Of a stretch of 24,503 bases of DNA, positions 853 through 18,901 are shown piece by piece (the first letter of the stretch is position 1; every line of letters begins with the position of its first letter). The notes under the pieces are model-generated. The model made no database searches. It was not told the origin of the DNA and saw nothing but the letters and a program-made list of their open reading frames with translations. Origin of the DNA: Candidatus Roizmanbacteria bacterium CG_4_10_14_0_8_um_filter_33_9 (lineage in GTDB: Bacteria > Patescibacteriota > Microgenomatia > UBA1406 > GWC2-37-13); the NCBI GenBank assembly GCA_002785065.1, contig PFLI01000065.1:1724-26226 (forward strand), written 5' to 3'. The position numbers were made by a program, and so were the translations under genes.

Positions 853-906
853 GTCATCCTGAATATATTTCAGGATCTAAAAGATGCTGAAACAGTTCAG
901 CATGAC
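853..906. repeat. YGTC-tagged REP-like double-hairpin element (copy 1, intergenic)
   Basis: GTCATCCTGAA-tatat-TTCAGGATCT-aaa-AGATGCTGAA-acag-TTCAGCATGAC: two 8-bp hairpins in inverted arrangement with GTCAT/ATGAC termini, flanked by T and A. Confidence 0.9.
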
Positions 907-921
907 AGTTTAATACTATTT

Positions 922-1122
922 ATGAAAGTAAAACAAAAAACAAGAAAATCTGCAGCAAGCAGATTTCGAGTTACAAAAAATGGTAAGGTAATGCACAGAC
1001 AAAAAGGTTTCAGACACCTTCGAACTGTCAAAGGAAAAAGAAACTTGAGAAGACTTAAAAAAATGAAACCATTAGTTGGAAAATTTGCAATAAAAGTGAA
1101 AAAGATGTTGGGGTTAAAGTAA
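922..1122 (+). CDS. rpmI: 50S ribosomal protein L35
   Basis: K.KTRKSAASRFRVTKNGKV......H....K...RRL; position between infC and rplT. Confidence 0.97.
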   Translation: MKVKQKTRKSAASRFRVTKNGKVMHRQKGFRHLRTVKGKRNLRRLKKMKPLVGKFAIKVKKMLGLK

Positions 1123-1169
1123 TGACTAAGAAAAAAAATTAATATTAATAATTTAATAAAAAAAATCTT

Positions 1170-1517
1170 ATGGTTCGCGTTAAAGGAGGAGTTCATACAA
1201 GAAGAAAACATAAAAAAATTTTAGACCTTGCTAAAGGCTATTGGATGACGCGTCACAAACAGTTTAAAAAAGCAAAAGAAGCAGTCCTACACGCAGGTGA
1301 ATACGCTTTTACCGGAAGAAAAGAAAATAAGAGAAATTTCAGAACTCTTTGGATTATTCGATTAAATGCCGCATTAAAACAGTTTGATTTGAAATACAGC
1401 AAATTCATTCATATGCTCACGACTAAAAAAGTAGGCGTTGATAGAAAAATACTTTCACAAATTGCTAATGAATATCCTTCTGTTTTTGCCAAGATAGTTG
1501 AAGAAGTAAAAAAGTAA
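1170..1517 (+). CDS. rplT: 50S ribosomal protein L20
   Basis: MVRVKGG...R.KHKKIL.LAKGY...R...KRNFRTLWIIRLNAA...DRKILS signature. Confidence 0.98.
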   Translation: MVRVKGGVHTRRKHKKILDLAKGYWMTRHKQFKKAKEAVLHAGEYAFTGRKENKRNFRTLWIIRLNAALKQFDLKYSKFIHMLTTKKVGVDRKILSQIANEYPSVFAKIVEEVKK

Positions 1518-1569
1518 CTTCAAAATAACGTTTAAAATTAGATTATCCTACAGTATACTTATATACTAT

Positions 1570-2646
1570 ATGGAAATAGATGTAACAAATGAAAAAAAGA
1601 AAGCAATTGATTTTATCGTAAATTCATCTTCTTTATCCGAGCTTATCAAAACAGAAACAGAACTTCTTGGACGAAATGGTCTTATTAATTCATTATTAAA
1701 ACAGCTCAAAAACATTATACCTGAAAAAAGAAAGACTGTTGGAATAAATATTAATGCATTAAAACAGGAAGTTATAACACTCATTAATCAAAAAAAACAG
1801 CTATTATCTCAAAAAATAGATGATAAAAATATCGATGTTACCATGCCCGGAACATCTATTAAAACGGGAACTCTCCATCCAATCACAATCGCTATTACAG
1901 AAATAAGTTCGATATTTTCAAAACTCGGATTTATACGAATGTCATATCCAGAAGTTGAGTGGGAGTATCTTGCATTTGACACTCTTAATATGCCAAAAAC
2001 TCATCCAGCACGCGATGACTTTGAAACGACATTTGTTAACGGAGAACCGCATCCAACATACGGAAAAATGATTTTAACTCCCCATACTTCGTCAGGTCAG
2101 ATTCGAGAAATGTGGAGACTTAAAAAACCACCTATTCGCATGATAAATATTGGAAAGTGTTATCGGCCCAATTGGGATGCGACACATACTCCAATGTTTC
2201 ATCAATTTGAAGGACTTTGTGTTGATACTGATATAAATATCACTCATTTAAAAGGTGCTCTTGATTATTTTGCAAAAGAATATTTTGGTGAAAATACACA
2301 AACTCGACTCAGACCGCATCATTTTCAGTTTACCGAACCATCCTTCGAGGTAGATATTAGTTGTACCATGTGCCAAGGAACAGGGATCCTTCGACAATCC
2401 CGTGATAGCGGGACTTCTCAGGATGACCTAAAAGTCAAATGTAAAATATGTAAATCCGGATGGCTTGAACTGGGAGGTACTGGGATGGTGCATCCAAATG
2501 TATTAATATCGGGAGGTATTGATCCTATAAAATACTCGGGATGGGCGTTTGGATTTGGAATCGAACGGGTTATTATGATGAAATACGGAGTCGATGATAT
2601 TCGAAATTATTACTCAGGGGACATGAGATTTTTAAGTCAATTTTAA
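1570..2646 (+). CDS. pheS: Phenylalanyl-tRNA synthetase alpha subunit, with a repeat-derived insertion in the CxxC...CxxC loop
   Basis: GTLHPIT, FDTLNMPKTHPARD, LTPHTSSGQIR, DATHTPMFHQFEG, RPHHFQFTEPSFEVD, GWLELGGTGMVHPNV and AFGFGIERVIM motifs. Confidence 0.98.
   Translation: MEIDVTNEKKKAIDFIVNSSSLSELIKTETELLGRNGLINSLLKQLKNIIPEKRKTVGININALKQEVITLINQKKQLLSQKIDDKNIDVTMPGTSIKTGTLHPITIAITEISSIFSKLGFIRMSYPEVEWEYLAFDTLNMPKTHPARDDFETTFVNGEPHPTYGKMILTPHTSSGQIREMWRLKKPPIRMINIGKCYRPNWDATHTPMFHQFEGLCVDTDINITHLKGALDYFAKEYFGENTQTRLRPHHFQFTEPSFEVDISCTMCQGTGILRQSRDSGTSQDDLKVKCKICKSGWLELGGTGMVHPNVLISGGIDPIKYSGWAFGFGIERVIMMKYGVDDIRNYYSGDMRFLSQF
2385..2427 (-). repeat. YGTC-tagged REP-like half element inserted in-frame in pheS (copy 2)
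   Basis: Reverse complement is GTCATCCTGAG-AAGTCCCGCTATCACGGGA-TTGTCGAAGGATC. It has the same GTCATCCTG start and GGATC end as copies 1 and 4, plus an inner hairpin TCCCG-tgatag-CGGGA (2398-2413). Codons 2383-2427 encode GILRQSRDSGTSQDD. Confidence 0.85.
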
Positions 2647-2650
2647 ATAT

Positions 2651-4624
2651 ATGAACATCAAAGTATTACATAGTTGGTTGCTTGAATATCTCGATACCAA
2701 AGCAACTCCTCCGCAAATACAGCAATATATATCTTTATGCGGACCTTCTGTTGAAAGTGTGGAAAAAATTCAAAATGATTGGTTGTATGATATTGAGATT
2801 ACCTCAAATCGCATTGATACGGTGTCAGTTGTTGGCATTGCTCGTGAAATATCAACAATTCTCAATCGATTTGAAATACCAGCATTATTTAAAAAACCTA
2901 TCCTTCTCGAACCGTCTTCACCAAATAACATTCTTCCTTTTACTATTAAAGATAACGGTAAACTCACAAAACGACTTATGGCAATTGTTATGGATAACAT
3001 TACGGTAAGTAAATCTCCCGATTTTATAACAAAACGGTTAGAAGCTGCTGGAATTCGTTCGTTGAGCAATATTGTTGATATAACCAATTACGTCATGCTT
3101 GAAATCGGTCATCCAACTCATGTGTTTGATTATGATCGAATTAAAACCAATACATTTATCTTAAGACATGCAAATAAAGGAGAAAAAATCACCACACTAG
3201 ATAAAAAAACGCATGACCTATATGAGACTGATATTATCATTGATGACGGAACAGGTCGTATTATCGATTTTCCTGGTATCATGGGTACTGCAAATAGTGT
3301 AGTGACTGACAAAACAAAACGCATTGTCTTTTTCATAGAATCAAATAATCCTCAAGCAATACGTAGATCATCAATGAAACATGGAATTCGAACCATGGCA
3401 GCCTCAATTAATGAAAAAAATCCTCATCCTGCGCTTGTTCAAGATGCACTTTTTCGCGGAATAGAATTATACCAAACATACGCAAAAGCAGAAATTGCAA
3501 GTCCTGTTTATGATCTCTATCCAAATCCTCTAACTTCTAAAAAAATAAGCATTGATATTCCATTTATCCATAAAAAAATAGGTGTACCAATGGATAAAAA
3601 ACAGATTATTTCAATTCTTACTGATTTACAGTTTGAGGTAAAAACTAAACAAGACAATCTTGAAATAACCATACCAACTTTCCGCTATTTTGATATGTAT
3701 GAAAAAGAAGATATTATTGAAGAGATCGCACGAATTTATGGATATCATAATATTCCAGGACAACTACCACCTTTAGCATATATCCAACAACCTAAAGATA
3801 TTGAACAAATCTTTAATTATCAAAATGTTATTAAAACATATTTAAAGCATCAAACATGGTATGAAACAATGAATTATTCCGCATATTCCAAATTGTTACT
3901 ATCTGCGTTTGATTTAAAAGAAACGGATCATCTCCATATTACTAATACAATATCAGAGGATATTAAATATCTCCGCGTATCGATTATTCCGTCACTGCTT
4001 AAAAATATCAAAGAGAACGGGGGATTCTCAACCGATTTAAAATTGTTTGAAATTGCTAAAACATATAAACCTCAAAAAGCAAGCCTTCCTGAAGAACGGT
4101 TTAAATTATCTTTAGTAACAAAAGGCTCTTTTTTGAGCTTAAAGGGATTAATTGAAGCACTGCTAAAAGAACTACATGTTGAAAAATACTCATTTACCCT
4201 GTCTTCACATCCGTTTTTTTCCTCAACTGTTCAAGCACATCTTTTAATTGAAAACGTAGTTGTTGGTGTGTTAGGTAAAGTCAAAAACTCAATTATGGAA
4301 CACATGCAGCTGACTGATTCAGTTTTTGCTGCGGAGTTTGATTTTGAAAAACTGATTGAAAAGGCACGCCTTATGCCTATTTATAAACCATACAATCCCT
4401 ATGCAGCAATCCAGCTTGATTTAACAACGCCTCTCAATCAATCATATGCAAAAATCGTCCAGATTGCGAAAGAATCCGCTCCTCATATAACTCAAATCAC
4501 CCTTAAAGATACATATAAGGATAACGTAACATTACATCTCATATTTTCCTCACCCAATAGAAACTATACAGAAAAAGAAGCACTTATTGAACTTGAAAAG
4601 ATAAAAAATAATATTTTAGTATAG
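2651..4624 (+). CDS. pheT: Phenylalanyl-tRNA synthetase beta subunit, short form lacking the B2/OB tRNA-binding insert
   Basis: IEITSNRIDTVSVVGIARE, RLEAAGIRSLSNIVDITNYVMLEIGHPTHVFD, IPTFRYFD..EKEDIIEEIARIYGY and YLRVSIIPSLL motifs; follows pheS. Confidence 0.96.
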   Translation: MNIKVLHSWLLEYLDTKATPPQIQQYISLCGPSVESVEKIQNDWLYDIEITSNRIDTVSVVGIAREISTILNRFEIPALFKKPILLEPSSPNNILPFTIKDNGKLTKRLMAIVMDNITVSKSPDFITKRLEAAGIRSLSNIVDITNYVMLEIGHPTHVFDYDRIKTNTFILRHANKGEKITTLDKKTHDLYETDIIIDDGTGRIIDFPGIMGTANSVVTDKTKRIVFFIESNNPQAIRRSSMKHGIRTMAASINEKNPHPALVQDALFRGIELYQTYAKAEIASPVYDLYPNPLTSKKISIDIPFIHKKIGVPMDKKQIISILTDLQFEVKTKQDNLEITIPTFRYFDMYEKEDIIEEIARIYGYHNIPGQLPPLAYIQQPKDIEQIFNYQNVIKTYLKHQTWYETMNYSAYSKLLLSAFDLKETDHLHITNTISEDIKYLRVSIIPSLLKNIKENGGFSTDLKLFEIAKTYKPQKASLPEERFKLSLVTKGSFLSLKGLIEALLKELHVEKYSFTLSSHPFFSSTVQAHLLIENVVVGVLGKVKNSIMEHMQLTDSVFAAEFDFEKLIEKARLMPIYKPYNPYAAIQLDLTTPLNQSYAKIVQIAKESAPHITQITLKDTYKDNVTLHLIFSSPNRNYTEKEALIELEKIKNNILV

Positions 4625-4645
4625 TTGCATTCATACCAATAAAAT

Positions 4646-4790
4646 GATACTCCCCGACGCAGAGCATCGGGGCATCTATATGTGTCATTCCGGCGAAAGC
4701 CGGAATCTATATAATTCTGGATCCCGATTTTCATCGGGATGACAAACAATTTTCGCAGCAGAGCTGCGAGGAATTAAACCACTAAGGTTA
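4646..4790. mobile_element. Putative non-autonomous palindrome-bounded element (IS200/IS605- or PATE-like) with two GC-AGA-GC hairpins
   Basis: Hairpin A CCCCGA-C-GC-AGA-GC-A-TCGGGG (4652-4672) and hairpin B TCGCAGC-AGA-GCTGCGA (4753-4769) are in the same orientation about 100 nt apart. B is followed by GGAATTAAACCACTAAGGTTAAA. The boundaries and the family call are inference. Confidence 0.5.
4684..4743. repeat. YGTC-tagged REP-like double-hairpin element (copy 3, intergenic, nested between the GC-AGA-GC hairpins)
   Basis: GTC-ATTCCGGC-GAAA-GCCGGAAT-CT...GG-ATCCCGAT-tttc-ATCGGGAT-GAC; TGTCAT/ATGACA termini as in copy 1. Confidence 0.9.
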
Positions 4791-4791
4791 A

Positions 4792-5364
4792 ATTATTAAT
4801 AGTTTTATCTACTATCGTTCATGCAGATCAAAACCGAGATATTCTTTTTTTAAAAAGATGGACAAAAACCTGAGAGACGCAAAATTAAATGAAATACATT
4901 TTCGATCTACTTTCATTGTAGATATCGTAGCATTTATACTCATGCCGAATCATTATCATTTTTTACTGAAACAACTAAAACAAAATGGAATTATTTCTTT
5001 TATGTCAAATAGTATAAATTCAATTACAAGGTTTTATAATGTGAAAAATGAGAGAAAAGGTCCTGTATTTTTACCTCAGTTTCGCTTTAAACGAATTTTA
5101 TCGATAGAACAGCTTGTTTATACATCAAAATACATACATACAAATGCTTATACTGCCAACATAATTAATACAAAAGAAGAAATCATTAAATATCCATATT
5201 CATCAATGAGTTGCTATATAGCTCAAAATATTTTACAAATCAATTTAAAACCTGTTTTGAGTTATTTTAATCATAATACAAATAAATATATTGATTTTAT
5301 TCAGAAAAATACCCAGAATAATACAGAAAGAGAGATTAATAGTCATATCAATCAATGGAGTTAA
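4792..5364 (+). pseudogene. REP-associated tyrosine transposase (RAYT, Y1 HUH family), 5'-truncated
   Basis: HUH motif FILMPNHYHFLLKQ, then N..NERKGPVF...F, (Y1) KYIHTN and YPYSS. The frame extends upstream of the ATG at 4858 to a TAA at 4789-4791 (IINSFIYYRSCRSKPRYSFFKK), and the usual N-terminal YYHvxNRG segment is absent. Confidence 0.75.
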
Positions 5365-5390
5365 GATACAGCTTGTCAAGATAATCTATT

Positions 5391-6482
5391 TCACCCCAGG
5401 GGTGCATCATGTCTATCGCAAACACCCGAACTAGCAGAAAAAACGATACTTACTCTTGTATCACCATTGGTATCTTGAATAACATATGAAGGCATATGCT
5501 CACCAATTTGAAATAACTGAGTAGCATCTGGAGGAATAAATTCTAACTGAGCATCAGGCGAAAGTACTTTTAATCTTTCTTTAAAATCATAATATCTAGC
5601 AACTATACCTGTACTAAATGATTGATACTGCGCGAAAGCGCGTAAGGCTACAGAATACAAAGGCAACTCAGATAATTGAACTAATTGCGGATCAGGTTTT
5701 GAGGCAAGTTCTCTTAATAAATCAGCTCGTGACTTTGCAGTATTACCATCTTTCATTCTTTCAAATAAAAGAAATAGTATTTGCTTGTCGTTTAATCTTG
5801 AAGAAAACAATCCCAAGCCTCCTGCTTGTTTAAGAATTTGATGATAATTATTTGGTGTCGGATCGGCACAATTACCAACCGCAAAATTACTTTGCATCAA
5901 TTCATTTAAAGCTACCCACATAATATGTTGTAGATCAGGATCAAAAAATAATTGTACTTCTTCAATGCCAAGAGCCTTAATCATGTCAGCGGCAAAAAGT
6001 GAAGTCATAAATGCTGTAGGAGGTGGAGGAACTTCTATTTTATTATTAATGGTTTGATATGTATGTGTTAATCTATCTGGAGTTTTGATCTCAAGCCCCA
6101 TAACAGTTAAAATATTTGCAAGGGGTGGGGTACGTAGAACATCTTCTTTTAAAGCAGAAACTGTAACATTGCCGTGTAAAGGCTCTCCAGAACTTCTGGC
6201 ACAATGAGAAATAACAATTGATGCAGTCTGAGCTAAAGGAGAAAATTCTGGTGGATAACCTGTAAGAATCACTTGTGCGTTTGGATCGTGAATTTTATTA
6301 GAGTATAATATTTTTGCATCAATATATACATTACCCAAACCAATCCATAAGGATCCTTCTGTTCTTGCGCGTAACCAAGATTTAATATACTGTAATGTAG
6401 AATTCCCGGTTATCAAAGGAGGAGCGAGAGATTCGGAGGTAATTGTATATTGTTGAGCTACTGGACTTCTTTCTTCACTCAT
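5391..6482 (-). CDS. Hypothetical soluble protein, 363 aa (start revised to MSEERSP)
   Basis: Long ORF with no motif I recognise. The track start at 6602 overlaps the PBP 3' end, whereas the ATG at 6482 lies 7 nt after an extended -10 TGaTATAAT. Confidence 0.75.
   Translation of the reverse strand: MSEERSPVAQQYTITSESLAPPLITGNSTLQYIKSWLRARTEGSLWIGLGNVYIDAKILYSNKIHDPNAQVILTGYPPEFSPLAQTASIVISHCARSSGEPLHGNVTVSALKEDVLRTPPLANILTVMGLEIKTPDRLTHTYQTINNKIEVPPPPTAFMTSLFAADMIKALGIEEVQLFFDPDLQHIMWVALNELMQSNFAVGNCADPTPNNYHQILKQAGGLGLFSSRLNDKQILFLLFERMKDGNTAKSRADLLRELASKPDPQLVQLSELPLYSVALRAFAQYQSFSTGIVARYYDFKERLKVLSPDAQLEFIPPDATQLFQIGEHMPSYVIQDTNGDTRVSIVFSASSGVCDRHDAPLG
5392..5404. repeat. Short GC-rich palindrome CACCCC-A-GGGGTG, candidate REP of the adjacent RAYT
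   Basis: Perfect inverted repeat 27 nt downstream of the RAYT stop in AT-rich context. The assignment as a REP is inference from position. Confidence 0.55.
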
Positions 6483-6489
6483 ACTTAGT

Positions 6490-6498
6490 ATTATATCA
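6490..6498 (-). promoter_or_regulatory. Extended -10 promoter (TGnTATAAT), leaderless geometry
   Basis: Minus strand reads TTTGATATAAT-actaagt-ATG. Confidence 0.65.
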
Positions 6499-6517
6499 AA
6501 GGAGGACTGTTTTAACA

Positions 6518-9130
6518 CTATTCCGTACTTGAGGATGAAGTTGGTGTTGAAGTCGTGGTTGGCGCTGAAGTTGGAACTGCAGTTGGCTCTGCATAATTCC
6601 AATTTCTATTTAATCCAAATTTAATTGCAGACTCTCCTGATTTATCTTTATCATTTGTAGCACGGACTTTAAGTTCATAAACACCATCCGGTTTATCCTT
6701 AATTGTCTCCTCGATATCTTTTTTATCTTCGTTATAGTTTTTGATCTCTTGATTATTAAGCCATATTTTTACATTTTTAAGAGATGACATCGAAGTTATT
6801 TTTACTTTAATATTGATATCTTTCCCTTCAAGTTTAGACCGATCAGACGGAGATTTAATAGAAACAACGACGTCTTCGGAACGATTATCTGAAATTTCTG
6901 TTGGACATTTCCATTTATCATCAGATTGCTCTCGAGCCCATTTATCAATAGCATCCTGCCATCTATTTTTTCCATCGGTTGAAATGGGATCATTTTCAGT
7001 AACCACATAACAGTCTTTCTCTTCATAATTGCCTGTTTTTATTTCAATATCATTAGCAAGCTTTCCGTTTGATTTTGAAATTTTTTGTTTTTTATAATAG
7101 GAAGATACATCTTTCGGTTCTGTGCCTTCGATGAAATACTCCGATCGAGTTCCATTGCCATCTTTAGGTAATCCCCCAAACAATGAATCTATTTGTAATG
7201 CCTTAACCTTATTCGGTTTATCCATAATGCCGTCATCATACTTTTTAAGAAGATATTGCATAGTTTTATACCAAATAGGCGATGCGCCTGTTGCACCTGA
7301 TGAAATTTTTGGATTCATTTTTGAATTGTCATTATTTCCAACCCACACTCCAACACTTATTCCTTTCGTATATCCAATTGCCCAGTTGTCACGTTTATCA
7401 TCGGTTGTTCCCGTCTTCACCGCTACTGTTTTCCCTGGGATATTTAAGTAAGATCGAAGACCAAATTCTATTTCACGTGCGTTGTTATCGGATAAAATAT
7501 GAGAGATGAGAAAAGCAGATTCCGGGGATATCGGTTTTGTCTCATGACTTTTTTTTGCTGAGTAAATAAGTTTATTCGAATAGTCTTTAATTTCAACAAT
7601 TGACTGAATATCTTTTTTGATACCTCCTCGTGCAAATACAGAAAAAGCAGATGTCATATCCACAAGAGTTACTTCACCTCCACCAAGAGTAATAGAAAGT
7701 CCAAACCTGTTCAAATTTTCTTGTGTTGGGCTAAGGGTGTTTAGCCCCATATCGCTAGCTCTTTGCATAAAATCACGAATACCAACCATAGCCAACAATT
7801 TTACTGCAGGAAGATTAAATGAATTACCTAATGCGAAACGAAGTTGAACTGGTCCATGATATTTTCCATCATAATTCACTGGAACATAATCTTCTTGATC
7901 TTTAGATGGAAAAGTAGTCTCAACATCCATAAGCGTTGTTGTTGGTGTATATCCTTTTTCAAATGCAGTAACATAGGTAATAGGCTTTATAGTTGATCCT
8001 GGTTGACGAAGACCCAAAGAAGCATTAAATGCTCCATATTCTGTATCATTAAAGTCATATGAACCAACCATAGCAAGCATTTCGTTTGTCTTTGAATCAA
8101 GAACAACAACAGCGCCATTTCCAACTTGATAATCTTCTTTAATACTATTGATTTCATCTTTTACAATTTTTTCTATTGACGTTTGAGCTTCAAGTGAGAG
8201 AGTTGTTTTTATCTTTAATCCTTGCTCTAGAATTTTTGATCCGAACTCTTTTTCAATTTGGTCTTTAACGTAAAAAACAAAATGAGGTGCGTTAATAGAC
8301 ATTTTTGCTGCGGAAAAAACAACGGAATTTATACTATCGACTGATTGTTTTTCTTCTTTTAATGTGATATATCCATCTTCACGCATACGACGTAAAACAT
8401 CTATTGTGCGAGTTTTCCAAACGTCTTTTTTTCCTATAAAAGGGGAGTATATGCTCGGACTCTGGGGAAGTCCTGCTAGAATTGCAGATTCCAAAATAGT
8501 TAATTCTTTTGGAGATTTATTAAAATATCCCTTTGCTGCCGATCCAATACCGACATAACTTCCTCCATAGGGAATTTCATTAAGATACATTTCTAATATC
8601 TGGTCTTTGGTATATTTTCCTTCAACCGAAATAGCTAAAATAATTTCCTTAATTTTACGCGAAGCAGTTTGCTTTGAATCCAAAAGCACGGTTTTAATAA
8701 GTTGTTGTGTAATTGTTGACCCTCCTCCGGAAATCTTTCTTGTAAGAAGTAAATTAATAAATGAACGAAGAATTCCAATTTGTGAGATTCCACCATGTTT
8801 ATAAAAACCTTTGTCTTCGATAGCAATAGTTGCTTGCTTTAATTTGTCATTTATTTCGGATAATTTAAACGGTAACCTATTTTTGTCCTTAAACATTTCA
8901 AACAAAATCTTTCCGTCACGGTCATAAAAAACAGTGGCATTTTCAGAGACTTGTGATAATTTTCCTGGAGCAGGAAGATCACGACCAAACCATGCAAAAA
9001 GAATAAGAAAAATAAGAAAAATAAAAGCAATTACTGAACCAATAACAATAAATGGATTCTTTTTAATAAAAATAAACGCTTGTGGAAAAATAGTTAATTT
9101 ACTTTGCCGTCTACGTTTTGAAACATACAT
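6518..9130 (-). CDS. Class A penicillin-binding protein (PBP1A family; transglycosylase-transpeptidase) with a C-terminal Ig-like domain and a Thr/Ser/Pro-rich tail
   Basis: N-terminal TM helix. GT51 motifs EDKGFYKHGG, GGSTITQQLIK and RKIKE. Transpeptidase motifs SxxK (QPGSTIKP), SxN (NSFN) and KTGT. Tail EPTAVPTSAPTTTSTPTSSSSTE. Confidence 0.96.
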   Translation of the reverse strand: MYVSKRRRQSKLTIFPQAFIFIKKNPFIVIGSVIAFIFLIFLILFAWFGRDLPAPGKLSQVSENATVFYDRDGKILFEMFKDKNRLPFKLSEINDKLKQATIAIEDKGFYKHGGISQIGILRSFINLLLTRKISGGGSTITQQLIKTVLLDSKQTASRKIKEIILAISVEGKYTKDQILEMYLNEIPYGGSYVGIGSAAKGYFNKSPKELTILESAILAGLPQSPSIYSPFIGKKDVWKTRTIDVLRRMREDGYITLKEEKQSVDSINSVVFSAAKMSINAPHFVFYVKDQIEKEFGSKILEQGLKIKTTLSLEAQTSIEKIVKDEINSIKEDYQVGNGAVVVLDSKTNEMLAMVGSYDFNDTEYGAFNASLGLRQPGSTIKPITYVTAFEKGYTPTTTLMDVETTFPSKDQEDYVPVNYDGKYHGPVQLRFALGNSFNLPAVKLLAMVGIRDFMQRASDMGLNTLSPTQENLNRFGLSITLGGGEVTLVDMTSAFSVFARGGIKKDIQSIVEIKDYSNKLIYSAKKSHETKPISPESAFLISHILSDNNAREIEFGLRSYLNIPGKTVAVKTGTTDDKRDNWAIGYTKGISVGVWVGNNDNSKMNPKISSGATGASPIWYKTMQYLLKKYDDGIMDKPNKVKALQIDSLFGGLPKDGNGTRSEYFIEGTEPKDVSSYYKKQKISKSNGKLANDIEIKTGNYEEKDCYVVTENDPISTDGKNRWQDAIDKWAREQSDDKWKCPTEISDNRSEDVVVSIKSPSDRSKLEGKDINIKVKITSMSSLKNVKIWLNNQEIKNYNEDKKDIEETIKDKPDGVYELKVRATNDKDKSGESAIKFGLNRNWNYAEPTAVPTSAPTTTSTPTSSSSTE

Positions 9131-11394: not shown

Positions 11395-11544
11395 ATGGCA
11401 CCATTACCAAAACGAAAGCACTCAACACAGAGAAAAGGCAAACGAATGAGTCATAAATCAACCACACTCGCTAAATTAGTCATCTGTAAAAAATGTGGTA
11501 AAACAAAATTACCTCATCGAATTTGTAAATATTGTAATAAATAA
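11395..11544 (+). CDS. rpmF: 50S ribosomal protein L32 (Zn-ribbon form; absent from the ORF track)
   Basis: My translation is MAPLPKRKHSTQRKGKRMSHKSTTLAKLVICKKCGKTKLPHRICKYCNK, with the PKRK.S..R...R and CxxC...PHRxCxxC signature. Confidence 0.95.
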   Translation: MAPLPKRKHSTQRKGKRMSHKSTTLAKLVICKKCGKTKLPHRICKYCNK

Positions 11545-11550
11545 CCCGTT

Positions 11551-11916
11551 ATGGACGTTCGGCATAAAAAAAGGATGAAAATAATCCAAAACCTTTATGC
11601 TTATTCCTTTCAAAATACCTCAAATACATTTTTAAATACGGATGAGATTGATTCGTTGAACATTATTGAAAATCTTCACGAAGTTGATGAACAAATAGTT
11701 CTTTATGCTAAAAAATTTCCCATTGAAAAAATCGGAAAAGTAGATCTTGCTATTTTAAGACTTGCGATTTATGAACTTATTATTAATCCAAAAGAGCCAA
11801 AAAAGGTTGTAATCAATGAAGCAATCGAACTAGCAAAAGAACTCGGCGGAGAAAAGTCTTTCTCATTTATAAACGGAGTTCTTGGAAAAATTGTTTTTGA
11901 GCACAAACCAAAATGA
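11551..11916 (+). CDS. nusB: Transcription antitermination factor NusB
   Basis: VDLAILRLAIYEL...P.KVVINEAIELAKELGGEKSFSFINGVLG. Confidence 0.95.
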   Translation: MDVRHKKRMKIIQNLYAYSFQNTSNTFLNTDEIDSLNIIENLHEVDEQIVLYAKKFPIEKIGKVDLAILRLAIYELIINPKEPKKVVINEAIELAKELGGEKSFSFINGVLGKIVFEHKPK

Positions 11917-12608
11917 ATAAATTATTAAAATTACTAGAAAAAAGAATAAAAATTACGTTTATAAATAAAAAAATTGTTGAAAATGTTTTTATTCATCGTT
12001 CTTTTTTAAATGAACACAAACATTCGGAATTTCCTTCAAACGAAAAATTGGAATTTCTCGGTGATAGTGTACTATCTCTGATTACTTCAATTTATTTGTA
12101 TAAAAATTTTCCCCTTCTTGACGAAGGAACATATACAGATATTAAAGCATCGGTTGTTCGAACCGAAAGTTTGGCTGAAGTTGGAAAAAAATTAGATTTA
12201 GGTATGATTGTTTTACTATCAAAAGGAGAAGAACTTAACGGTGGACGAGAAAATAAAAATATATTAGCTGATTGCTTTGAAGCTTTTATTGCCGCAATTT
12301 TTATTGATAAAGGGTTTGACGTTGCATACACATTTATCGTTGAGTGGCTTTTTAAAGGCAAATTAGACTATATTGTTAAAAACAAATTATATTTATCTCC
12401 AAAAAGTCGATTACAAGAATATATACAGGCAAAATATCGAAAACTACCTATTTATACAACACAAGAAGAAAAAGGACCTGAACACAAAAAAGAATTTTTA
12501 GTATCCGTAAACTTTGATTCAGAGTTTTTAGGACAAGGAAAAGGTTCTTCAAAAAAAGAAGCTGAGGAAGCAGCAGCAAAAAATGCACTGGAAAAACTAA
12601 AAGAATAA
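11913..12608 (+). CDS. rnc: Ribonuclease III
   Basis: HRSFLNE, NEKLEFLGDSVL signature, DCFEAFIAA, and a dsRBD (PKSRLQEYIQ...GPEHKKEF...G.GSSKKEAEEAAA). ATGA overlap with nusB. Confidence 0.98.
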   Translation: MNKLLKLLEKRIKITFINKKIVENVFIHRSFLNEHKHSEFPSNEKLEFLGDSVLSLITSIYLYKNFPLLDEGTYTDIKASVVRTESLAEVGKKLDLGMIVLLSKGEELNGGRENKNILADCFEAFIAAIFIDKGFDVAYTFIVEWLFKGKLDYIVKNKLYLSPKSRLQEYIQAKYRKLPIYTTQEEKGPEHKKEFLVSVNFDSEFLGQGKGSSKKEAEEAAAKNALEKLKE

Positions 12609-12664
12609 AGTATAATTATGTTTTGGAACGATAAACACCAAAATTACATTTTTAATAAAGAAAT

Positions 12665-12919
12665 ATGCCTGCAACAATAAGATTAATGAGATTTGGAAAA
12701 AAAGGTCAACCAAGTTATCGCATAGTTGTTCTTGATAAAAGGAAAAAGAGAGATGGAGCTTATATTGAAAAAATAGGATTCTATAATCCAATGGTGGAGC
12801 CAAAAATATTCGAAATTGACGAACAAAAATTTACTTCTTGGAAATTGAAAGGTGCATTAATTTCAGAAGGAATGAGGAAGCTGCTTAAAAATAAAGCTGC
12901 CACAACCAAAACAAAATAA
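12665..12919 (+). CDS. rpsP: 30S ribosomal protein S16
   Basis: IRLMRFGKKGQPSYRIVVLDKRKKRDGAYIEKIGFYNP. Confidence 0.98.
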   Translation: MPATIRLMRFGKKGQPSYRIVVLDKRKKRDGAYIEKIGFYNPMVEPKIFEIDEQKFTSWKLKGALISEGMRKLLKNKAATTKTK

Positions 12920-12934
12920 CGTTAAAAAGCTATC

Positions 12935-13612
12935 TTATTGAAATGGATTATCGGTAATTTCGTAATCTGTCCCTAAAGATTCTTGTGTATCTTCGAAATT
13001 AATCTTAACCTTATCTTTAATTTCTAGTAATAATGCCAGATCTTTTAAGTCAAGTTTTGGAACCAGTTCTTGACCTAGAATATATTTTTTATTATAAAAA
13101 TTTAAATTTACTTGTGTATTTACATTCGTTCCAGAAAATTGTATAGTCTCACTAGTTGCAAGTCTTCCACCGATATAATTATAGTTCTTCAAAAACTCCA
13201 TAAAGGTATTTGCATTTCCTTTTCCGGCAACATTCATTGATATTTTATTTTTGGTAGATGAAATGTTAATCGTGTAATTAGAAATGAAAAATCCCGTCTC
13301 TTGGCTTATCTTTTCAAGGGCATATATAATTGTAAAAAAGTCTTCATTTTCAGGAATAAGCGCTGATAGAATCTTGTTGTAAATAGTTATTTGTTCCATT
13401 TTCAACTGAGAATTTGCTTTAATAATATCAGCTCGGTTTTTTAAAAGCTTTATTTCACTTGTAAGATTGGCTTCTTCTATTCGAGCAGATATTAATGCAC
13501 TATAAGAATAATTAACTAACATTGTCATAATAAATAAAACAAATATAGTTAAAAGAATTATCCAGTTGTCTTTAACAAAAAACTGAATTTGTTTAATTTT
13601 TAATTTATTCAT
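12935..13612 (-). CDS. pilO: Type IV pilus alignment protein, PilO-like
   Basis: One N-terminal TM helix, a coiled coil, then ALEKISQETG and V.G.G...FMEFLKN.....RL pattern. Third gene of the pilM-N-O run. Confidence 0.7.
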   Translation of the reverse strand: MNKLKIKQIQFFVKDNWIILLTIFVLFIMTMLVNYSYSALISARIEEANLTSEIKLLKNRADIIKANSQLKMEQITIYNKILSALIPENEDFFTIIYALEKISQETGFFISNYTINISSTKNKISMNVAGKGNANTFMEFLKNYNYIGGRLATSETIQFSGTNVNTQVNLNFYNKKYILGQELVPKLDLKDLALLLEIKDKVKINFEDTQESLGTDYEITDNPFQ

Positions 13613-14187
13613 TGTATTTGATTGAACCTACCTCTGAACTGTAATTGATATTTATAGGAACTAATTCCTAAAGTCTTTAAATTAAGAGTAAAATTTGCCA
13701 AACTTAATTGACTAAATTTTGATAAAAAATCATTTGACTCAATAAATTTAATAAATGAGATCATATTGTGATAATTTGAAAATTTAACAGTAAATGATGT
13801 ATCTCGTAGCTTATTTATTAAGACGCTATCTAATAAAGCCGATTGGGTAGATGATGAAGATGTTACGGCTTCTTTTAGAATAGTATAATACGGTAAAAAA
13901 TTTGCATCATCTTTCATAAAAGTTGTTAATTGTGATTCTTTACTTTTAAAATAACGTACATTTGCTTCTGAATCCTTATTATCAACAAGAAAAGCAAGAT
14001 ACAATTTTTTTTTATCGTTCATAGAATTAATATTATTTTTTACTTTTAATAATATAATGGTAAGAAAAATAAAAACAATAAAGCAAAAAACGCCAATTAT
14101 TGAAGCAAGTAGTTTAATCTTGTCTCCATAGAGTACAAGAAAATGTACTTTTTTTTTAGATAATAATAAATTAATTCGCTTTTTCAT
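13609..14187 (-). CDS. pilN: Type IV pilus alignment protein, PilN-like
   Basis: N-terminal INLL (PilM-binding) motif, TM helix and coiled coil; ATGA overlaps with both neighbours. Confidence 0.7.
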   Translation of the reverse strand: MKKRINLLLSKKKVHFLVLYGDKIKLLASIIGVFCFIVFIFLTIILLKVKNNINSMNDKKKLYLAFLVDNKDSEANVRYFKSKESQLTTFMKDDANFLPYYTILKEAVTSSSSTQSALLDSVLINKLRDTSFTVKFSNYHNMISFIKFIESNDFLSKFSQLSLANFTLNLKTLGISSYKYQLQFRGRFNQIQ

Positions 14188-15215
14188 CTGAGATTACCAG
14201 AAATAGCACCAATAAAAGATGTCATTTCTATCCCGAATGATTCAGTTATTGGATTGGATTTTATGTAATCTTTTAAAATTAATGAATCTACAGGAACTTG
14301 AAGCAACTCGGAAAGTTTTTTATCAAAGGATAGTACATATGATGAATAATTAAATAAGTACATTTTTTCTACTCGTAAACCAAGTTTTTCTTTTGAAGAA
14401 ATCATAAACTTTGATAGTTCGTTCACAAAGTCCCTTAAAATATTTGATACTATTTTTGAAATATCATACGAAGCATTGTTTTCAAAACCCACAGTTTTCA
14501 GTAATTCCAATGCTTTTGAATCGGTAACTTCTAAATTAAACTTAATTTCTTTAATAAGAATATCTAAACCGAGCTTAATTGTATGTGTCATCATAATTAA
14601 TGACGATTTAGCGTCTATTAAATATATGGAGCTTGAAGAATACCCAAAATTTATAATTAAATATGAATTATCATTTTTATCATTTTTATATTGAAGAATC
14701 TCCGAAAAAAGTCTTCCTATTGAGCTATGTTCGTTTTCAAGAGAAACCGGTATTAAGCTTAACATTTCAAATAGTTTTTCTGCTCTCTCAATTTGTTTTT
14801 TTGAACATGCGATAATGAGTACTTTATTTTGTTTTGCCTGTTTATCTGTTGTCAATATTTCTATATCTAAAACAACTTCATCAAGCGGTATGGGAATAAA
14901 TTGATCTGCTTGATATTTAACTACAGATAGCAGCTCTTTTTCGTTAAGTAAAGCTAAATCAAGAATTTGTGAATATGAATATGTATCAGGAACAACAATG
15001 TTCACATTTCGTTTAGTTAATTTTAAATCTGAAAACATTTTTGATATAAGTTCTGCTTGAGCAGTTAAGCTTTTTTCTGTATCATCAGAGTAAAAATTGG
15101 ATACGGTATTTTGAATTCCTGCCGCATTTAGAGTAATACTACCTTTATTAAAAGATGCATCAACAATTCGGGTAAACTTTTCTCCTAAATCAATGCAAAC
15201 TGAGTCATTATTCAT
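14184..15215 (-). CDS. pilM: Type IV pilus assembly protein PilM (actin-like fold); start revised to ATG 15215
   Basis: CIDLG..FTRIV and IINFGYSSSSI phosphate-loop motifs, L...EL..VVKYQADQFIPIPLDEV..D, and C-terminal GAISGNLR. Confidence 0.88.
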   Translation of the reverse strand: MNNDSVCIDLGEKFTRIVDASFNKGSITLNAAGIQNTVSNFYSDDTEKSLTAQAELISKMFSDLKLTKRNVNIVVPDTYSYSQILDLALLNEKELLSVVKYQADQFIPIPLDEVVLDIEILTTDKQAKQNKVLIIACSKKQIERAEKLFEMLSLIPVSLENEHSSIGRLFSEILQYKNDKNDNSYLIINFGYSSSSIYLIDAKSSLIMMTHTIKLGLDILIKEIKFNLEVTDSKALELLKTVGFENNASYDISKIVSNILRDFVNELSKFMISSKEKLGLRVEKMYLFNYSSYVLSFDKKLSELLQVPVDSLILKDYIKSNPITESFGIEMTSFIGAISGNLR

Positions 15216-15221
15216 TATTCC

Positions 15222-15250
15222 AGTATCGTTAATAAAAAACAAAAAGTCAA
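15222..15250 (-). promoter_or_regulatory. Sigma70-type promoter for pilMNO, leaderless geometry
   Basis: Minus strand reads TTGACT-N17-GATACT-N6-ATG(15215). Confidence 0.55.
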
Positions 15251-15262
15251 GTTGTATTCTTA

Positions 15263-15796
15263 CTAATAACTACGAAGTTTAAATGTAAAATGATATGGTA
15301 AGGTAAAAATTGAACCGGAATCGGTTATATCAAATGAAGTTATTATAATTGGAGGACTAAAACTACTCGTTCTATAACAAGTAAATCCTTCATTTTGAAT
15401 TTTTACTCGTGTATTTGTTAAATAAGAAATAGCTCCTACACTGCTTTGTGATGCAATTTTATGTTCTAAATCAACATAATAAGAAAAAGTATTAAGTTCT
15501 GTATCAATAACATTAATTCGAGGAGCGGGAGTAGGTATCGGAGTAGTTATTGGATTCGTAAGTATAGGACAAACATCGTTAGTATATGTTACATCAACAA
15601 CACGAATACCTTTTTGTTGAATGTTAAATTTCATATTCTCCAAAGCGTAGTCGCCTTGTTGTTTTATATCTTTAAGTGCATAAATTCGTGTTTCTTGTTG
15701 AAGTATTGTAAAAATTATTGCAAATAGTGAGGGAAGAGTAAAAGAAATAACGGCCAGAACTACTAATATTTCAATAAATGTAAATCCTTTTTTCAT
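15263..15796 (-). CDS. Minor pilin, PulJ/PilW-like (start revised to MKKG|FTFIE)
   Basis: Class III signal G|FTFIEILVV plus hydrophobic helix; Pro/Thr-rich segment TNPITTPIPTPAP; 2 Cys. Confidence 0.85.
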   Translation of the reverse strand: MKKGFTFIEILVVLAVISFTLPSLFAIIFTILQQETRIYALKDIKQQGDYALENMKFNIQQKGIRVVDVTYTNDVCPILTNPITTPIPTPAPRINVIDTELNTFSYYVDLEHKIASQSSVGAISYLTNTRVKIQNEGFTCYRTSSFSPPIIITSFDITDSGSIFTLPYHFTFKLRSY

Positions 15797-15798
15797 GG

Positions 15799-16314
15799 TT
15801 AATATGTTTTCTCCCAAATTGAAAATACCGAATTAATTGGAACACGATATACTGTACCTGATTCGGTCCACTCTACTATAATCGAAACATTAACTTTATC
15901 AATGTATGCGTCAGTTTCAGAAACTGTTAGAGGAGTTAATGTGACATACCGACGATACATTATATTTAAAGTGAATGGACAACTGTTAAGGTCAATAGTG
16001 GAAGACGAAACCCACCCGGCAATAGGTGAGGTATTAAAACAAAATGTGTATGGTAATTGTGACGCTTTATATGTAAAAGAGGTTGTATCTGTATTGTTGC
16101 CTCCCCAATTTAATTCTTTTTCTGCACTTAACCATTCATACAGCTCATCAGCATAATGTTTTGCAAAAATTTTATGTTCATTGACTTTAGAAACTCGAAG
16201 AGAAGCTATCATAACTCTTACTGCTACAACAAAAAAGAGACTTAAAATGGTAATAAATATAAGAACCTCAATTAATGAAAAAGCTACATTTAATTTTAAT
16301 TTATAGCTGCACAT
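15799..16314 (-). CDS. Minor pilin, PilV/GspI-like (start revised to ATG 16314)
   Basis: Class III signal A|FSLIEVLI, then A..YADELYEWL and C-terminal V.IIVEW.E. TAATG overlap with the upstream gene; 2 Cys in the mature protein. Confidence 0.83.
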   Translation of the reverse strand: MCSYKLKLNVAFSLIEVLIFITILSLFFVVAVRVMIASLRVSKVNEHKIFAKHYADELYEWLSAEKELNWGGNNTDTTSFTYKASQLPYTFCFNTSPIAGWVSSSTIDLNSCPFTLNIMYRRYVTLTPLTVSETDAYIDKVNVSIIVEWTESGTVYRVPINSVFSIWEKTY

Positions 16315-16838
16315 TAAGGACAGGTACAATTAGTAACACAGTTGCTACAAGTTGAGCAAAACCCATCACTAATAATAGAGTTAGCAGATACTTTAATATA
16401 ATTGCATTTATCGAGAATCTCACTTTTAACTACAAAACATGTACAGGTAACTTTTCCATAATTCGGATTAAAATCTATTGAATTTGGATAAATATATATA
16501 TTATTAGATACAGCATACGTAATCGATTGAGGATCACTTTCTATACAGTGAGGAATAATTTGATACGATTTTCCTGCCACATCAACCTGAAAAGTAAAAT
16601 CTTGAACTTCAGGTACGCTTGATTCATTAAATGGTGTACATAAAGAACGATCTCCTGAGTTGGTTTTTGACTTGGTAAGTTCAAGAATTGTCATAACTTT
16701 TTTAGTTTCATTTTTCAATTGTTTTTCATTCGTAAAACGGTTAATAGTTGAAAGAGAAATAGTTGAGAATATAGCAATAATAACAATCACAACTATAAGC
16801 TCAATCAGCGTAAAACCTTTTAAAGATGAAGATTTCAT
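16314..16838 (-). CDS. Minor pilin, FimT/GspH-like, with a Cys-rich C-terminus
   Basis: G|FTLIELIVV signal and L......V...LELTKSKT helix; 10 Cys, ending CSTCSNCVTNCTCP. Confidence 0.83.
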   Translation of the reverse strand: MKSSSLKGFTLIELIVVIVIIAIFSTISLSTINRFTNEKQLKNETKKVMTILELTKSKTNSGDRSLCTPFNESSVPEVQDFTFQVDVAGKSYQIIPHCIESDPQSITYAVSNNIYIYPNSIDFNPNYGKVTCTCFVVKSEILDKCNYIKVSANSIISDGFCSTCSNCVTNCTCP

Positions 16839-16841
16839 ATA

Positions 16842-17279
16842 TTAAAGTTGACCATATGGCCCCATACAATAATTACAATACGCATCAGTACTATGACACG
16901 ATGGAATTGGAGAACAAACAGTGAAGCTTCCGCTTTCTAGGTGAACTCCAAAAGTATATGTATTACCATCTGAAAAGTAATAGTATAATTCACTTTGCTT
17001 AGGATCAGTAGGTATCTTGGACATATATGTGTTTCCTGATGCATCGACTAATGCTGCTCCAAATGGTAAACCCGGAGGAGAAACAGGGGATGTAGGGTAT
17101 AGGTCATTACTGCTCTTGTACATTTCCAAGGCGGAACGAATTAATTCAACATCGGCTTTTCTCCGAGCATCACGAGATTGCTTTAAAAACTGAGTATATG
17201 AAACAATACCGGCAACGGCAAGAAACCCAATAATGGTTGTTACAACTAATATTTCAACCAATGTAAAAGATTTTTGCAT
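16842..17279 (-). CDS. Type IV pilin, GspG-like (start revised to MQKS|FTLVE)
   Basis: S|FTLVEILVV signal, SRDARRKADVELIRSALEMY...LYP, YMSKIPTDP; 4 Cys. Confidence 0.88.
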   Translation of the reverse strand: MQKSFTLVEILVVTTIIGFLAVAGIVSYTQFLKQSRDARRKADVELIRSALEMYKSSNDLYPTSPVSPPGLPFGAALVDASGNTYMSKIPTDPKQSELYYYFSDGNTYTFGVHLESGSFTVCSPIPSCHSTDAYCNYCMGPYGQL

Positions 17280-17280
17280 A

Positions 17281-17700
17281 TTATTGTTGATTGGAAACAC
17301 AAAATGTACTTACGCTTTCTTCGGATTCAAAAACTCGCGCCGCTTCACGAGTCGGAATACATAATGAATATGATACCCCATCGTCTGGAGCAGTATATAC
17401 ATATGGATCATCTGTTTTTGGATCTTTTGGAGCTAAAGTCATAATAACTGTAGAAGGGTCTTCACAATAAACAGAACCGATATCAGGTGTGTTAATAGGC
17501 GTAGGATATTTGTAACCACAAACTGAATAATATTGCTCAACTGCTTTTTGGATCGTATTTATATCTGTCTTTCGCTTTGTATCTCTTGCTTTTTTTTGAG
17601 CAGTTGAAAATGAAGAGGTAATAATTGTCATAATCACGCCAATTATTCCTAAGACAACAAGCATTTCGAGTAAAGTAAAGCCAAATTGTTTATTTTTCAT
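17281..17700 (-). CDS. Type IV pilin, GspG-like
   Basis: G|FTLLEMLVV signal, ARDTKRKTDINTIQKAVEQYY, PKDPKT...Y.Y; 4 Cys. Confidence 0.88.
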   Translation of the reverse strand: MKNKQFGFTLLEMLVVLGIIGVIMTIITSSFSTAQKKARDTKRKTDINTIQKAVEQYYSVCGYKYPTPINTPDIGSVYCEDPSTVIMTLAPKDPKTDDPYVYTAPDDGVSYSLCIPTREAARVFESEESVSTFCVSNQQ

Positions 17701-17707
17701 ATATGTA

Positions 17708-18169
17708 TTAAGGTTGGAGAACTTTATAACATTTGTTTGACGAACATGTATATCCTGTCACCGTATTAAAATCACCTGGACATGATTCAACGTCTATATC
17801 CCCAACATTATCTAAACATGCATACATAGTATATGTACTATCATCATCGTTTGTTGAATAATAATATTTTCTTGCTGATGCAGCTGGACAGTTAGAGCTT
17901 GGATCTTTAGGAACTTTATTCATATAAACAATCGTGCCTGAAGACCAAGTATTGCATGGAAGTGCAGGAATAATAGATGGATATAATTGAGGAGTCTGAT
18001 TCTGTTTATATAATTCAAGAGCATTTTGTAACTGTCTTAAGTCTGACTTCCTCTGAACATCTCTTGTTCGCTGCCGCGATTCAATATAGTTGGGTAAAAG
18101 AAGTGTTGTTAATATGGCAATTATTGCAATTACAACCAATATCTCAACCAACGAGAATGCTTTTTTCAT
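17708..18169 (-). CDS. Type IV pilin, GspG-like
   Basis: A|FSLVEILVV signal, RDVQRKSDLRQLQNALELY...YP, YMNKVPKDP; 6 Cys. Confidence 0.88.
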   Translation of the reverse strand: MKKAFSLVEILVVIAIIAILTTLLLPNYIESRQRTRDVQRKSDLRQLQNALELYKQNQTPQLYPSIIPALPCNTWSSGTIVYMNKVPKDPSSNCPAASARKYYYSTNDDDSTYTMYACLDNVGDIDVESCPGDFNTVTGYTCSSNKCYKVLQP

Positions 18170-18172
18170 AAT

Positions 18173-18901
18173 CTATATATTTATAGTAACCTTCTTCTCA
18201 ATAAAAAGCAAGAGATTGTCCAATGCAAGTGCAACATTGAGATTATTGTTTTCTATTTTATGTTTAATAAAAAAAAGATATTTTAAAATTTCGGGGTAAA
18301 TGTCATCCTGGGGAATCCCGCTCTGTGGGATGACTCCAGGATCCGTAGATTCTGGACAATCAGAAGTGGTGCCAGAATGACGTAACTTGTTTGCAAAATA
18401 ATAAATAAATTCATTAATATATTTCAATACATCTTCTTTTTTAATGTTCGCTAATTGATCGTGACATAATGGATTCCTCTTTTTATTTTCAATAAGAAAG
18501 TCCAAAAGAGGGGGTATTTCATTTACATGATTTGCAACTGTATTAGTGATTTTAACGGAAACTACTTTCGCTCTGGAACGAATTGTCGGAAGCAAAGAAT
18601 ACAGATTAGAAGTTATAAGAACAATATGATTTAAGTCTTTTTTTTCTTCCAAAACTTTAAGTAGCATATTTTGAACTTCCCAAGAAGTACTCTCAAACCT
18701 ATAAAAAATAAATAACCGATCACTTGGAAAACGTATCGTAAATAATTTCAGAATGCTTTTTACTTCTTCTATGGTTAGCTCAGTTTTTTCAGGTATAAAT
18801 CTGTAAATATGGGTTGAATTAATAAGGTGTTTACGAATAAATGCATTAAGATAGTTTTCAGTGTCTTCTTTAGTTTGAGAACAAAGAATAATAGGAAGCA
18901 T
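18173..18901 (-). CDS. holB: DNA polymerase III delta-prime-like (HolB-like) clamp-loader subunit, short form, with a 27-aa repeat-derived insertion
   Basis: LTIEEVK, QNMLLKVLEE (cf. NALLKTLEEP), IVLITSN...LLPTIRSR (SRC-like Arg finger), and C-terminal NNLNVALALDNLL. No P-loop is visible. Confidence 0.75.
   Translation of the reverse strand: MLPIILCSQTKEDTENYLNAFIRKHLINSTHIYRFIPEKTELTIEEVKSILKLFTIRFPSDRLFIFYRFESTSWEVQNMLLKVLEEKKDLNHIVLITSNLYSLLPTIRSRAKVVSVKITNTVANHVNEIPPLLDFLIENKKRNPLCHDQLANIKKEDVLKYINEFIYYFANKLRHSGTTSDCPESTDPGVIPQSGIPQDDIYPEILKYLFFIKHKIENNNLNVALALDNLLLFIEKKVTINI
18302..18381. repeat. YGTC-tagged REP-like double-hairpin element inserted in-frame in the holB-like gene (copy 4)
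   Basis: GTC-ATCCTGG-gga-ATCCCG-ctctg-TGGGAT-gact-CCAGGAT-Ccgta-G-ATTCTGG-acaatcagaagtggtg-CCAGAAT-GAC. Bases 18302-18382 are exactly 27 codons on the minus strand (RHSGTTSDCPESTDPGVIPQSGIPQDD). Confidence 0.9.

Follow-up and report, generated by a model that had tools for sequence, protein, structure and literature searches.

Palindromic elements of the window

The window, a stretch of 24,503 nucleotides (nt) on contig C172 of the genome of Candidatus Roizmanbacteria bacterium CG_4_10_14_0_8_um_filter_33_9 (G000; 1.07 Mb, 33% GC, 195 contigs, 92.7% complete), carries four short palindromic elements, two of which lie in intergenic DNA and two within genes, namely pheS and a HolB-like gene (Table 1). 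Judged by their motif, these repeats are hairpins of the NTS/Ssn-related motif (SRM) type, a family known together with the small GIY-YIG nucleases called Ssn. A first-pass annotation made from the window had already described them, and direct reading of the sequence confirmed all four at the same coordinates, as well as the NGTC-AT-stem-loop-stem-AT-C grammar attributed to them, GTC-AT...AT-C being present in 7/7 half-units.

The three window pairs read YGTCAT-stem-loop-stem-ATC and, after a spacer of 4–12 nt, GAT-stem-loop-stem-ATGACR; their halves, first taken to be head-to-head, are instead joined by their tails (ATC..GAT), so that the GTCAT heads face outward. In the 853-906 pair (half-units of 25 and 24 nt), one half-unit is TGTCAT-CCTGAA-loop-TTCAGG-ATC and its inverted partner has a GCTGAA stem; in the 4684-4743 pair, the plus half-unit, which is NTS-like, has a TCCGGC stem (window 4684-4711 fits the published SRM search pattern) and the minus half-unit a CCCGAT stem. 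The 18302-18381 pair, read in frame as RHSGTTSDCPESTDPGVIPQSGIPQDD, has longer half-units that contain inner loops, the stems being CCTGG and TCTGG. The pheS copy (2385-2427) is a single unit, GGTCAT-CCTGAGAAG-TCCCG..CGGGA-..GAAGG-ATC, that is, a module GGATCCTTCGACAA..CTCAGGATGA found again within the Type II elements defined below, plus an additional inner hairpin. This inner TCCCG..GGGA hairpin was first considered specific to coding copies, which does not hold, as the CGTCATTCTGG subtype has it as a standard module and intergenic copies in other parts of the genome contain it too. When folded as single-stranded DNA (ssDNA) and compared to shuffled sequences, the 853, 4684 and 18302 pairs gave z-scores of -5.6 (DNA fold of -13.9 kcal/mol), -4.5 and -4.5 (-4.5 / -3.1 for this last, HolB-like pair); the pheS copy (z -1.4) does not stand out from the shuffles in this way and is a decayed hairpin.

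Other structures were noted around these elements. Hairpins at 4646-4672 (CCCCGA..TCGGGG) and 4753-4769 (TTCGCAGC..GCTGCGA) stand on either side of the 4684-4743 pair; the first-pass annotation had listed them apart as a possible outer element, and they may be terminators or another repeat type. Two further pattern matches (6743-6788 and 7505-7548), with AT-rich stems of 4–5 bp, look like chance. In other groundwater runs, the loop of the 883-906 half-unit has one additional A (window 893), and the spacer of the 4684-4743 pair (window 4711-4717) shows a 1-nt shift and two substitutions; the genes around both sites are nearly invariant in these runs.

Table 1. Positions of the repeat elements and of the genes associated with them (window numbering unless a contig is given)
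Feature	Position	Strand	Description
Intergenic Type I pair	852..907	.	Half-units 853-877 (+) and 883-906 (-); termini TGTCAT...ATGACA
pheS (phenylalanyl-tRNA synthetase alpha subunit)	1570..2646	+	24 orthologues at 55-68% identity; matches 2RHQ, 4P71, 3PCO
Eroded Type II-module half-unit in pheS	2383..2427	-	In-frame translation GILRQSRDSGTSQDD
Intergenic pair 3' of the 2651-4624 open reading frame	4683..4744	.	Half-units 4684-4707 (+) and 4720-4743 (-)
HolB-like gene (DNA polymerase III delta-prime type)	18173..18901	-	Pfam DNA_pol3_delta2, 45 bits; orthologues in 26/30 relatives
Type II pair in HolB-like gene	18301..18382	.	18302-18343 (+), subtype 2c; 18348-18381 (-), subtype 2a, exact consensus
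2b unit	C39:8536-8591		Overlaps the 3' end of the ssn-like gene
Ssn-like GIY-YIG gene	C39:8570-8869	minus	100 aa; Pfam 59.7 bits, profile positions 2-74 of 78
2a unit	C39:8898-8952		28 nt upstream of the ssn-like gene start

Genome-wide census and family identity

Units of the form GTCAT-5bp stem-loop-stem-ATC occur 96 times in the genome, compared to 1.7 +/- 1.5 in 20 first-order Markov simulations (a chance expectation of ~0.04 units for a window of this size), and an exact-stem search returned 96–100 half-units. In addition, a de novo k-mer census (k=13, k=10 being uninformative) identified the GTCAT family as the dominant repeat of the genome. The curated set contains 74 elements, 38 of Type I and 36 of Type II, so the high copy number predicted from the window was borne out, as was the occurrence of one structured family in both intergenic DNA and reading frames. 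The Type I half-unit has 25 nt (TGTCAT-SCYGAA-loop-TTCRGS-ATC, with TCCGGC, TCCCGC and CCCGAT as rarer stems), while Type II units start with CGTCATTCTGG, end with CCAGAATC, have modular loops of 14–60 nt with small hairpins nested inside, and fall into three subtypes named here 2a, 2b and 2c. Structure is kept over sequence, as had been proposed, the stems CCTGAA, CCCGAA, GCTGAA, GCCGAA, TCTGAA, TCCGGC, TCCCGC and CCCGAT each being found with their own complement. Gene-less pairs of the kind seen in the window measure 54–126 nt.

Other repeats were also seen. The contig ends at C172:3-74, C184, C158, C132 and C107 have in common a ~70-nt sequence (..GTTAACAAACAGAAACTGTTACCGATGTACCCGACTTTAAC..); this is probably where a multi-copy insertion sequence ends and interrupts the assembly. 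Many intergenic arrays of short low-complexity tandem units (CAAATGT, GGAGATT, CTAAACT), as well as a 16–17 nt tandem repeat, GTTCACCCTGAAGG(AA), are present on C63, C72, C73, C107, C128, C138 and C110:4388-4470.

The NTS/SRM hairpin family and its Ssn nucleases were described by Chenal et al. (Nat Commun 2025, PMC11893778). In this work, the Neisseria NTS is CGTCATTCCCGCGMAVGCGGGAATCYRG and its generalised form is the SRM; SsnA is a 94-aa single-domain GIY-YIG nuclease, the gene of which typically has the repeat on both sides, and Rickettsia is among the SRM-rich genera. SsnA binds the ssDNA form of the NTS, of a single strand only, and cuts it some bases upstream, binding depending most on the C directly after the palindrome and cleavage on the three bases directly before it, and SsnA is inactive on RNA (PMC11893778). 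The invariant GTC and trailing C of the repeats studied here are the very bases that govern SsnA cleavage and binding, and the unit at C75:13117 is identical to the Neisseria NTS at 27/28 positions. Further likenesses are the orientation of the hairpin, with GTC upstream and C downstream, the dozens to hundreds of copies per genome, and a small single-domain GIY-YIG gene with the repeat on both sides. In contrast to the published SRM, the main subtypes here have CCYGAA-type stems, or TCTGG stems with 14–60 nt modular nested loops, and gene-less pairs with two unlike ends are the main form.

The GIY-YIG cassette and its gene-less derivatives

A Pfam search of the genome for GIY-YIG domains gave three matches, the best of which is the Ssn-like gene of contig C39 (Table 1). 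Its protein has the GIY/YIG tyrosines (Y8 and Y18) and E65, which aligns with the Glu of 1ZG2, another GIY-YIG protein, and its nearest Atlas clusters are GIY-YIG proteins of 94–104 aa. Both sides of the gene are occupied by the CGTCATTCTGG subtype, and two more units are located beyond the flanking 2a and 2b units. The first-pass annotation had seen no dedicated mobiliser, which holds only for the window: the check that it had proposed, for a GIY-YIG nuclease bordered by the same repeat, led in the genome to this gene between two Type II units. Among 30 relatives, the closest homologue (62% identity) is in G017, with the same flanking arrangement and with 5/5 of the Type II units of this genome at the ssn-like locus; the two cassettes have nothing in common outside the gene and the repeats, and their neighbouring genes differ. 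Moreover, the Ssn homologues of G027, G012, G020 and G002, and those of four more records (one Kerfeldbacteria, one Pedobacter and two others), are each flanked by their own GTCAT hairpins with heads outward. Repeats on both sides of the gene were found at C39 and also in G017, G027, G012, G020 and L200.

Another small GIY-YIG gene, on C10, was rejected, being unrelated to the C39 protein by BLASTP and devoid of GTCAT flanks. This 104-aa gene (C10:1-460) stands directly after a tRNA gene; a 17-nt copy of the 3' end of this tRNA (AATCCGACTGGGGGTAC) comes after the GIY-YIG gene, so that the whole looks like a tiny islet integrated into the tRNA.

The gene-less pairs have the same architecture as the SRM-ssn-SRM cassette, with YGTCAT...ATGACR termini. 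All Type II pairs (20/20) join two unlike ends, and 13 of them are 2a+2b, i.e., the ends that flank ssn, while ~7 like-with-like pairs would be expected from the subtype frequencies (p ~1e-4). The pairs thus mirror the cassette with its unlike 2a/2b ends, and their anatomy suggests that they are miniature derivatives of it.

Inverted doublets of small palindromes also look like BIME or REPIN, and one could propose REP/REPIN elements at work here, with mobility provided, as in E. coli and Pseudomonas, by a Y1 (HUH) tyrosine transposase of the RAYT type. The genome indeed encodes an IS200-type TnpA (C74, 99.8 bits) and a weak RAYT-like open reading frame (ORF) (C113; Pfam 24 bits, NCBIfam REP_Tyr_transpos 30 bits). 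However, neither Y1 gene has GTCAT flanks, C74 having its own direct-repeat hairpin ends and C113 being flanked by CACCCTnAGGGTG hairpins; the C113 score is far under the 80-bit cut-off, and the gene flanked by the repeat is a GIY-YIG gene, in several genomes. These two Y1 transposases (IS200 and RAYT-like) were rejected as mobilisers for their different flanking hairpins, and we consider the REP/RAYT explanation as very unlikely. As for the Y1 loci themselves, C74:140-700 encodes an intact TnpA of the IS200/IS605 type (145 aa, NCBIfam 112 bits) between two direct copies of a ~30-nt hairpin (..GTCACTGAGTGAAACGAAGGGGCGGG..) found nowhere else in the assembly, and four further TnpA fragments are present on C108, C42 and C143. 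The C113 ORF (C113:257-1100, 231 aa) contains a run of N and gives weak Y1/RAYT-like matches (HxH-type NHYHFL motif, YIHINH); two CACCCTnAGGGTG hairpins precede it, and some Type I units have related ACCCTGTAAGGGT modules nested inside.

Insertions in reading frames

In-frame copies represent 23 of the 74 curated elements (31%), besides the eroded pheS copy, and concern about 21 genes. In 22 of these elements, at least 60 codons are open on each side, and the HolB-like copy has 174 and 42. Note that long open frames make up ~87% of the genome, so that genes are strongly under-hit by the elements (p ~1e-27). In addition to PheS and the HolB-like protein in the window, the hosts recognised by Pfam are PilD, LepA, MiaA, a Xer-type recombinase, Fmt, TrmD, GatB, asparagine synthase, a P-type ATPase, DHFR, LeuRS, CysRS and six glycosyltransferases, two more hosts being unknown proteins. 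In a second genome (G011, 85 Type I half-units), ~16 of ~60 sampled elements are also in frame in long ORFs. The 31% of G000 is still far above the value reported for N. meningitidis, where 2% of the copies are in frame within genes (PMC11893778).

The view that coding copies are true insertions adding loops is upheld by orthologues, since the insert is absent from relatives in 5/5 genes tested (PheS, HolB-like, TrmD, DHFR and LeuRS). In PheS, it is located at the tip of the CxxCxGxG...CxxC zinc knuckle, and the stretch between the two motifs reaches 22 residues, compared to 4–11 (mostly 7) in relatives. Nothing separates these motifs in the solved chains 2RHQ and 4P71, and the whole knuckle is missing from E. 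coli PheS; the insertion site is a dispensable hairpin tip. The same PheS loop contains, in G019 (another family), an unrelated GTCAT unit read VISRSEATRNL and absent in its congener G023, a second and independent insertion at this tolerant site. For the HolB-like protein, 19 relatives, including the same-genus genome, display a gap at the insert (20–23 residues in 18/19, 15 in the other). The TrmD and LeuRS loops that have an SRM insert in G000 carry different insertions in other genomes, 24 aa in G005 TrmD (L214) and ~20 aa in G003 LeuRS (L234); these loops are either repeatedly hit or freely variable.

The shared QDD reading of the two coding copies in the window had been taken for a preferred frame, which the larger sample does not confirm. 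At the ATGAC end, one of the three frames contains TGA and is used at 0/18 ends in G000 and 0/31 when pooled with G011. The open frames, read xD (QDD, QND, QHD) or MT (GMT, RMT), are used 11:7 in G000 (p = 0.48) and 20:11 in the pooled set (p = 0.15), the two open frames of the GTCAT end are used 7:10, and sense and antisense orientations of the in-gene copies are about equal. Since the TGA of the invariant ATGAC closes one frame and the other two are both used, QDD is the stop-free remainder and not a preference.

It could be argued that the in-gene copies never reach the proteins, their hosts being pseudogenes or assembly chimeras or the inserts being removed from the RNA, as we deal with a fragmented metagenome-assembled genome of 195 contigs and contigs break at repeats. 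Against this, the reading frames continue for 60–800 codons on either side of the inserts and give full-length Pfam matches, the frame that contains TGA is not used at any end, contigs of three independent metagenome runs (X1, X6 and X9) span the PheS insert without any difference there, and SsnA has no action on RNA (PMC11893778). We therefore regard such an explanation as extremely unlikely, and the in-gene inserts are presumably translated.

Distribution across genomes and phyla

Among the 30 relatives, Type II occurs in five genomes belonging to five genera of the same family and Type I in 13 genomes; neither is present in the genome of the same genus (99% complete, 6 contigs). Together, this repeat-free same-genus genome and the empty orthologous sites point to a gain of the repeats in the lineage of G000. 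Unchanged copies of the Type I 25-mer exist in several classes of the candidate phyla radiation (CPR), in Sphingomonadaceae, Bacteroidota, Ignavibacteria, Nitrospirota, Melainabacteria, Treponema and Elusimicrobiota, and in a Rickettsia endosymbiont. The family is therefore cosmopolitan and not CPR-specific, contrary to what was first proposed, its grammar being that of the published NTS/SRM motif.

Proposed mechanism and host-function alternative

The identity of the family by its motif, the association with ssn, the architecture of the pairs, the insertion status and the open frames are established, and it is likely that SRM hairpins occur here with an Ssn cassette, that their gene-less pairs multiplied in the lineage, and that the in-frame survivors are extra loops in tolerant sites. 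In such a scheme, the units, Y-GTC-[AT-stem-loop-stem-AT]-C, would be recognised in ssDNA form by small single-domain GIY-YIG nucleases (Ssn). In this lineage, the full unit would be the ~0.4 kb cassette made of GTCAT-hairpin-ATC, ssn and GAT-hairpin-ATGAC, and the 54–126 nt pairs would be gene-less miniatures that keep both outward-facing ends. Moved by Ssn or by another agent, as we infer, the units would have multiplied in the genome lineage and inserted in coding as well as intergenic DNA. The majority of the insertions into genes were presumably lost, and those retained would be the ones that keep the frame, avoid the TGA frame and fall in tolerant, length-variable loops, where they would be translated as additional loops of 8–30 residues.

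Several observations weigh against this proposal. The published SRM pattern fits only 8 of the ~96 units (0.9 expected), one of them in the window (4684), the dominant Type I and Type II units being outside it. The flanks of 37 pairs show no target-site duplication and no clear target motif, apart from the Y/R terminal bases of the element itself. Matches of the C39 protein to NCBIfam (17.7 bits) and to the Protein Data Bank (PDB) are weak, and a Type I-flanked Ssn gene was not found in this genome, given its 92.7% completeness and 195 contigs. Among relatives, the presence of Ssn and that of Type II are only loosely correlated; G027 and G029 have close, stop-interrupted Ssn homologues, yet no Type II units. 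In addition, Logan contigs of four groundwater metagenome runs contain no empty-site allele for window 1-20000, a result that is not evidence against mobility, as assembled contigs drop rare variants. The contigs of these runs break at the repeats, where depth is 3- to 9-fold higher. Finally, the only role demonstrated experimentally for NTS/SsnA, in Neisseria, is the modulation of natural transformation and not mobility (PMC11893778).

This demonstrated role, together with the lack of target-site duplications and of empty/filled polymorphism, would rather favour sites maintained by the host (for ssDNA restriction and transformation control as in Neisseria, or as terminators) and spread by recombination or gene conversion, with a domesticated Ssn and with coding copies as by-products. 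Such an explanation does not easily account for the patchy distribution (a same-genus genome without either type), for copies in essential genes in both orientations and two frames, or for unlike-ended pairs that mirror a gene cassette found in different neighbourhoods in G000 and G017. We thus consider it unlikely, and a selfish spreading unit fits better, although host function agrees with the data as well and the two views are not exclusive.

Relation to other systems and significance

Palindromes inserted in frame have been known since 2000 with the Rickettsia palindromic elements (RPEs) of Ogata et al. 2000 (reviewed in PMC10969869). As RPEs, the repeats described here are palindromic, sit in frame in many unrelated housekeeping genes of a reduced genome and add peptide segments. 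Compared by description, RPEs are ~150 bp long, were described within Rickettsia and their mobiliser is not known (PMC10969869), whereas the units here have 25–126 nt, come from Patescibacteria and are linked to an Ssn cassette. The REP/BIME/REPIN-RAYT systems resemble them by small palindromes, often in inverted doublets, by a single-copy gene flanked by the repeat and by ssDNA hairpin recognition; however, the gene here is GIY-YIG and not Y1 HUH, the head motif is another one, and REPs are extragenic. As for MITEs, the transposable elements of the miniature inverted-repeat kind, short non-coding derivatives keep both ends of a longer gene-bearing unit, with terminal inverted repeats (YGTCAT...ATGACR) and with 2a and 2b ends common to the pairs and to the ssn cassette. 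Unlike MITEs, the 37 pairs show no target-site duplication and the 'parent' encodes a nuclease without known strand-transfer activity.

In our literature searches, we met no article that deals with such repeats in CPR/Patescibacteria or with in-frame SRMs, or that joins SRM and RPE. The repeat-nuclease system itself was published in 2025, and the present results join two separate literatures, i.e., the Ssn/SRM system and the older in-frame palindromes of Rickettsia. A broader proposal, that SRM-ssn-SRM cassettes are autonomous ssDNA mobile elements crossing phyla and that gene-less pairs are the general cause of RPE-type in-frame palindromes, is tentative and less likely than not; if true, it would provide a mobiliser for the 25-year-old RPE puzzle of Rickettsia. 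The C39 protein and the 2a, 2b and 2c ends offer concrete enzyme/site pairs for testing whether the repeats are moved by Ssn. Annotators should note that the short GC-rich islands of CPR genes represent repeat insertions, most of which are missed by the published SRM patterns.

Altogether, in this streamlined groundwater bacterium, essential genes are colonised at ~15x the rate reported for Neisseria, and the hosts include three aminoacyl-tRNA synthetases, GatB, LepA, TrmD and DHFR. If the broader proposal is true, such elements would be a recurrent source of new surface loops in the essential proteins of reduced genomes, in Patescibacteria as in Rickettsiales.

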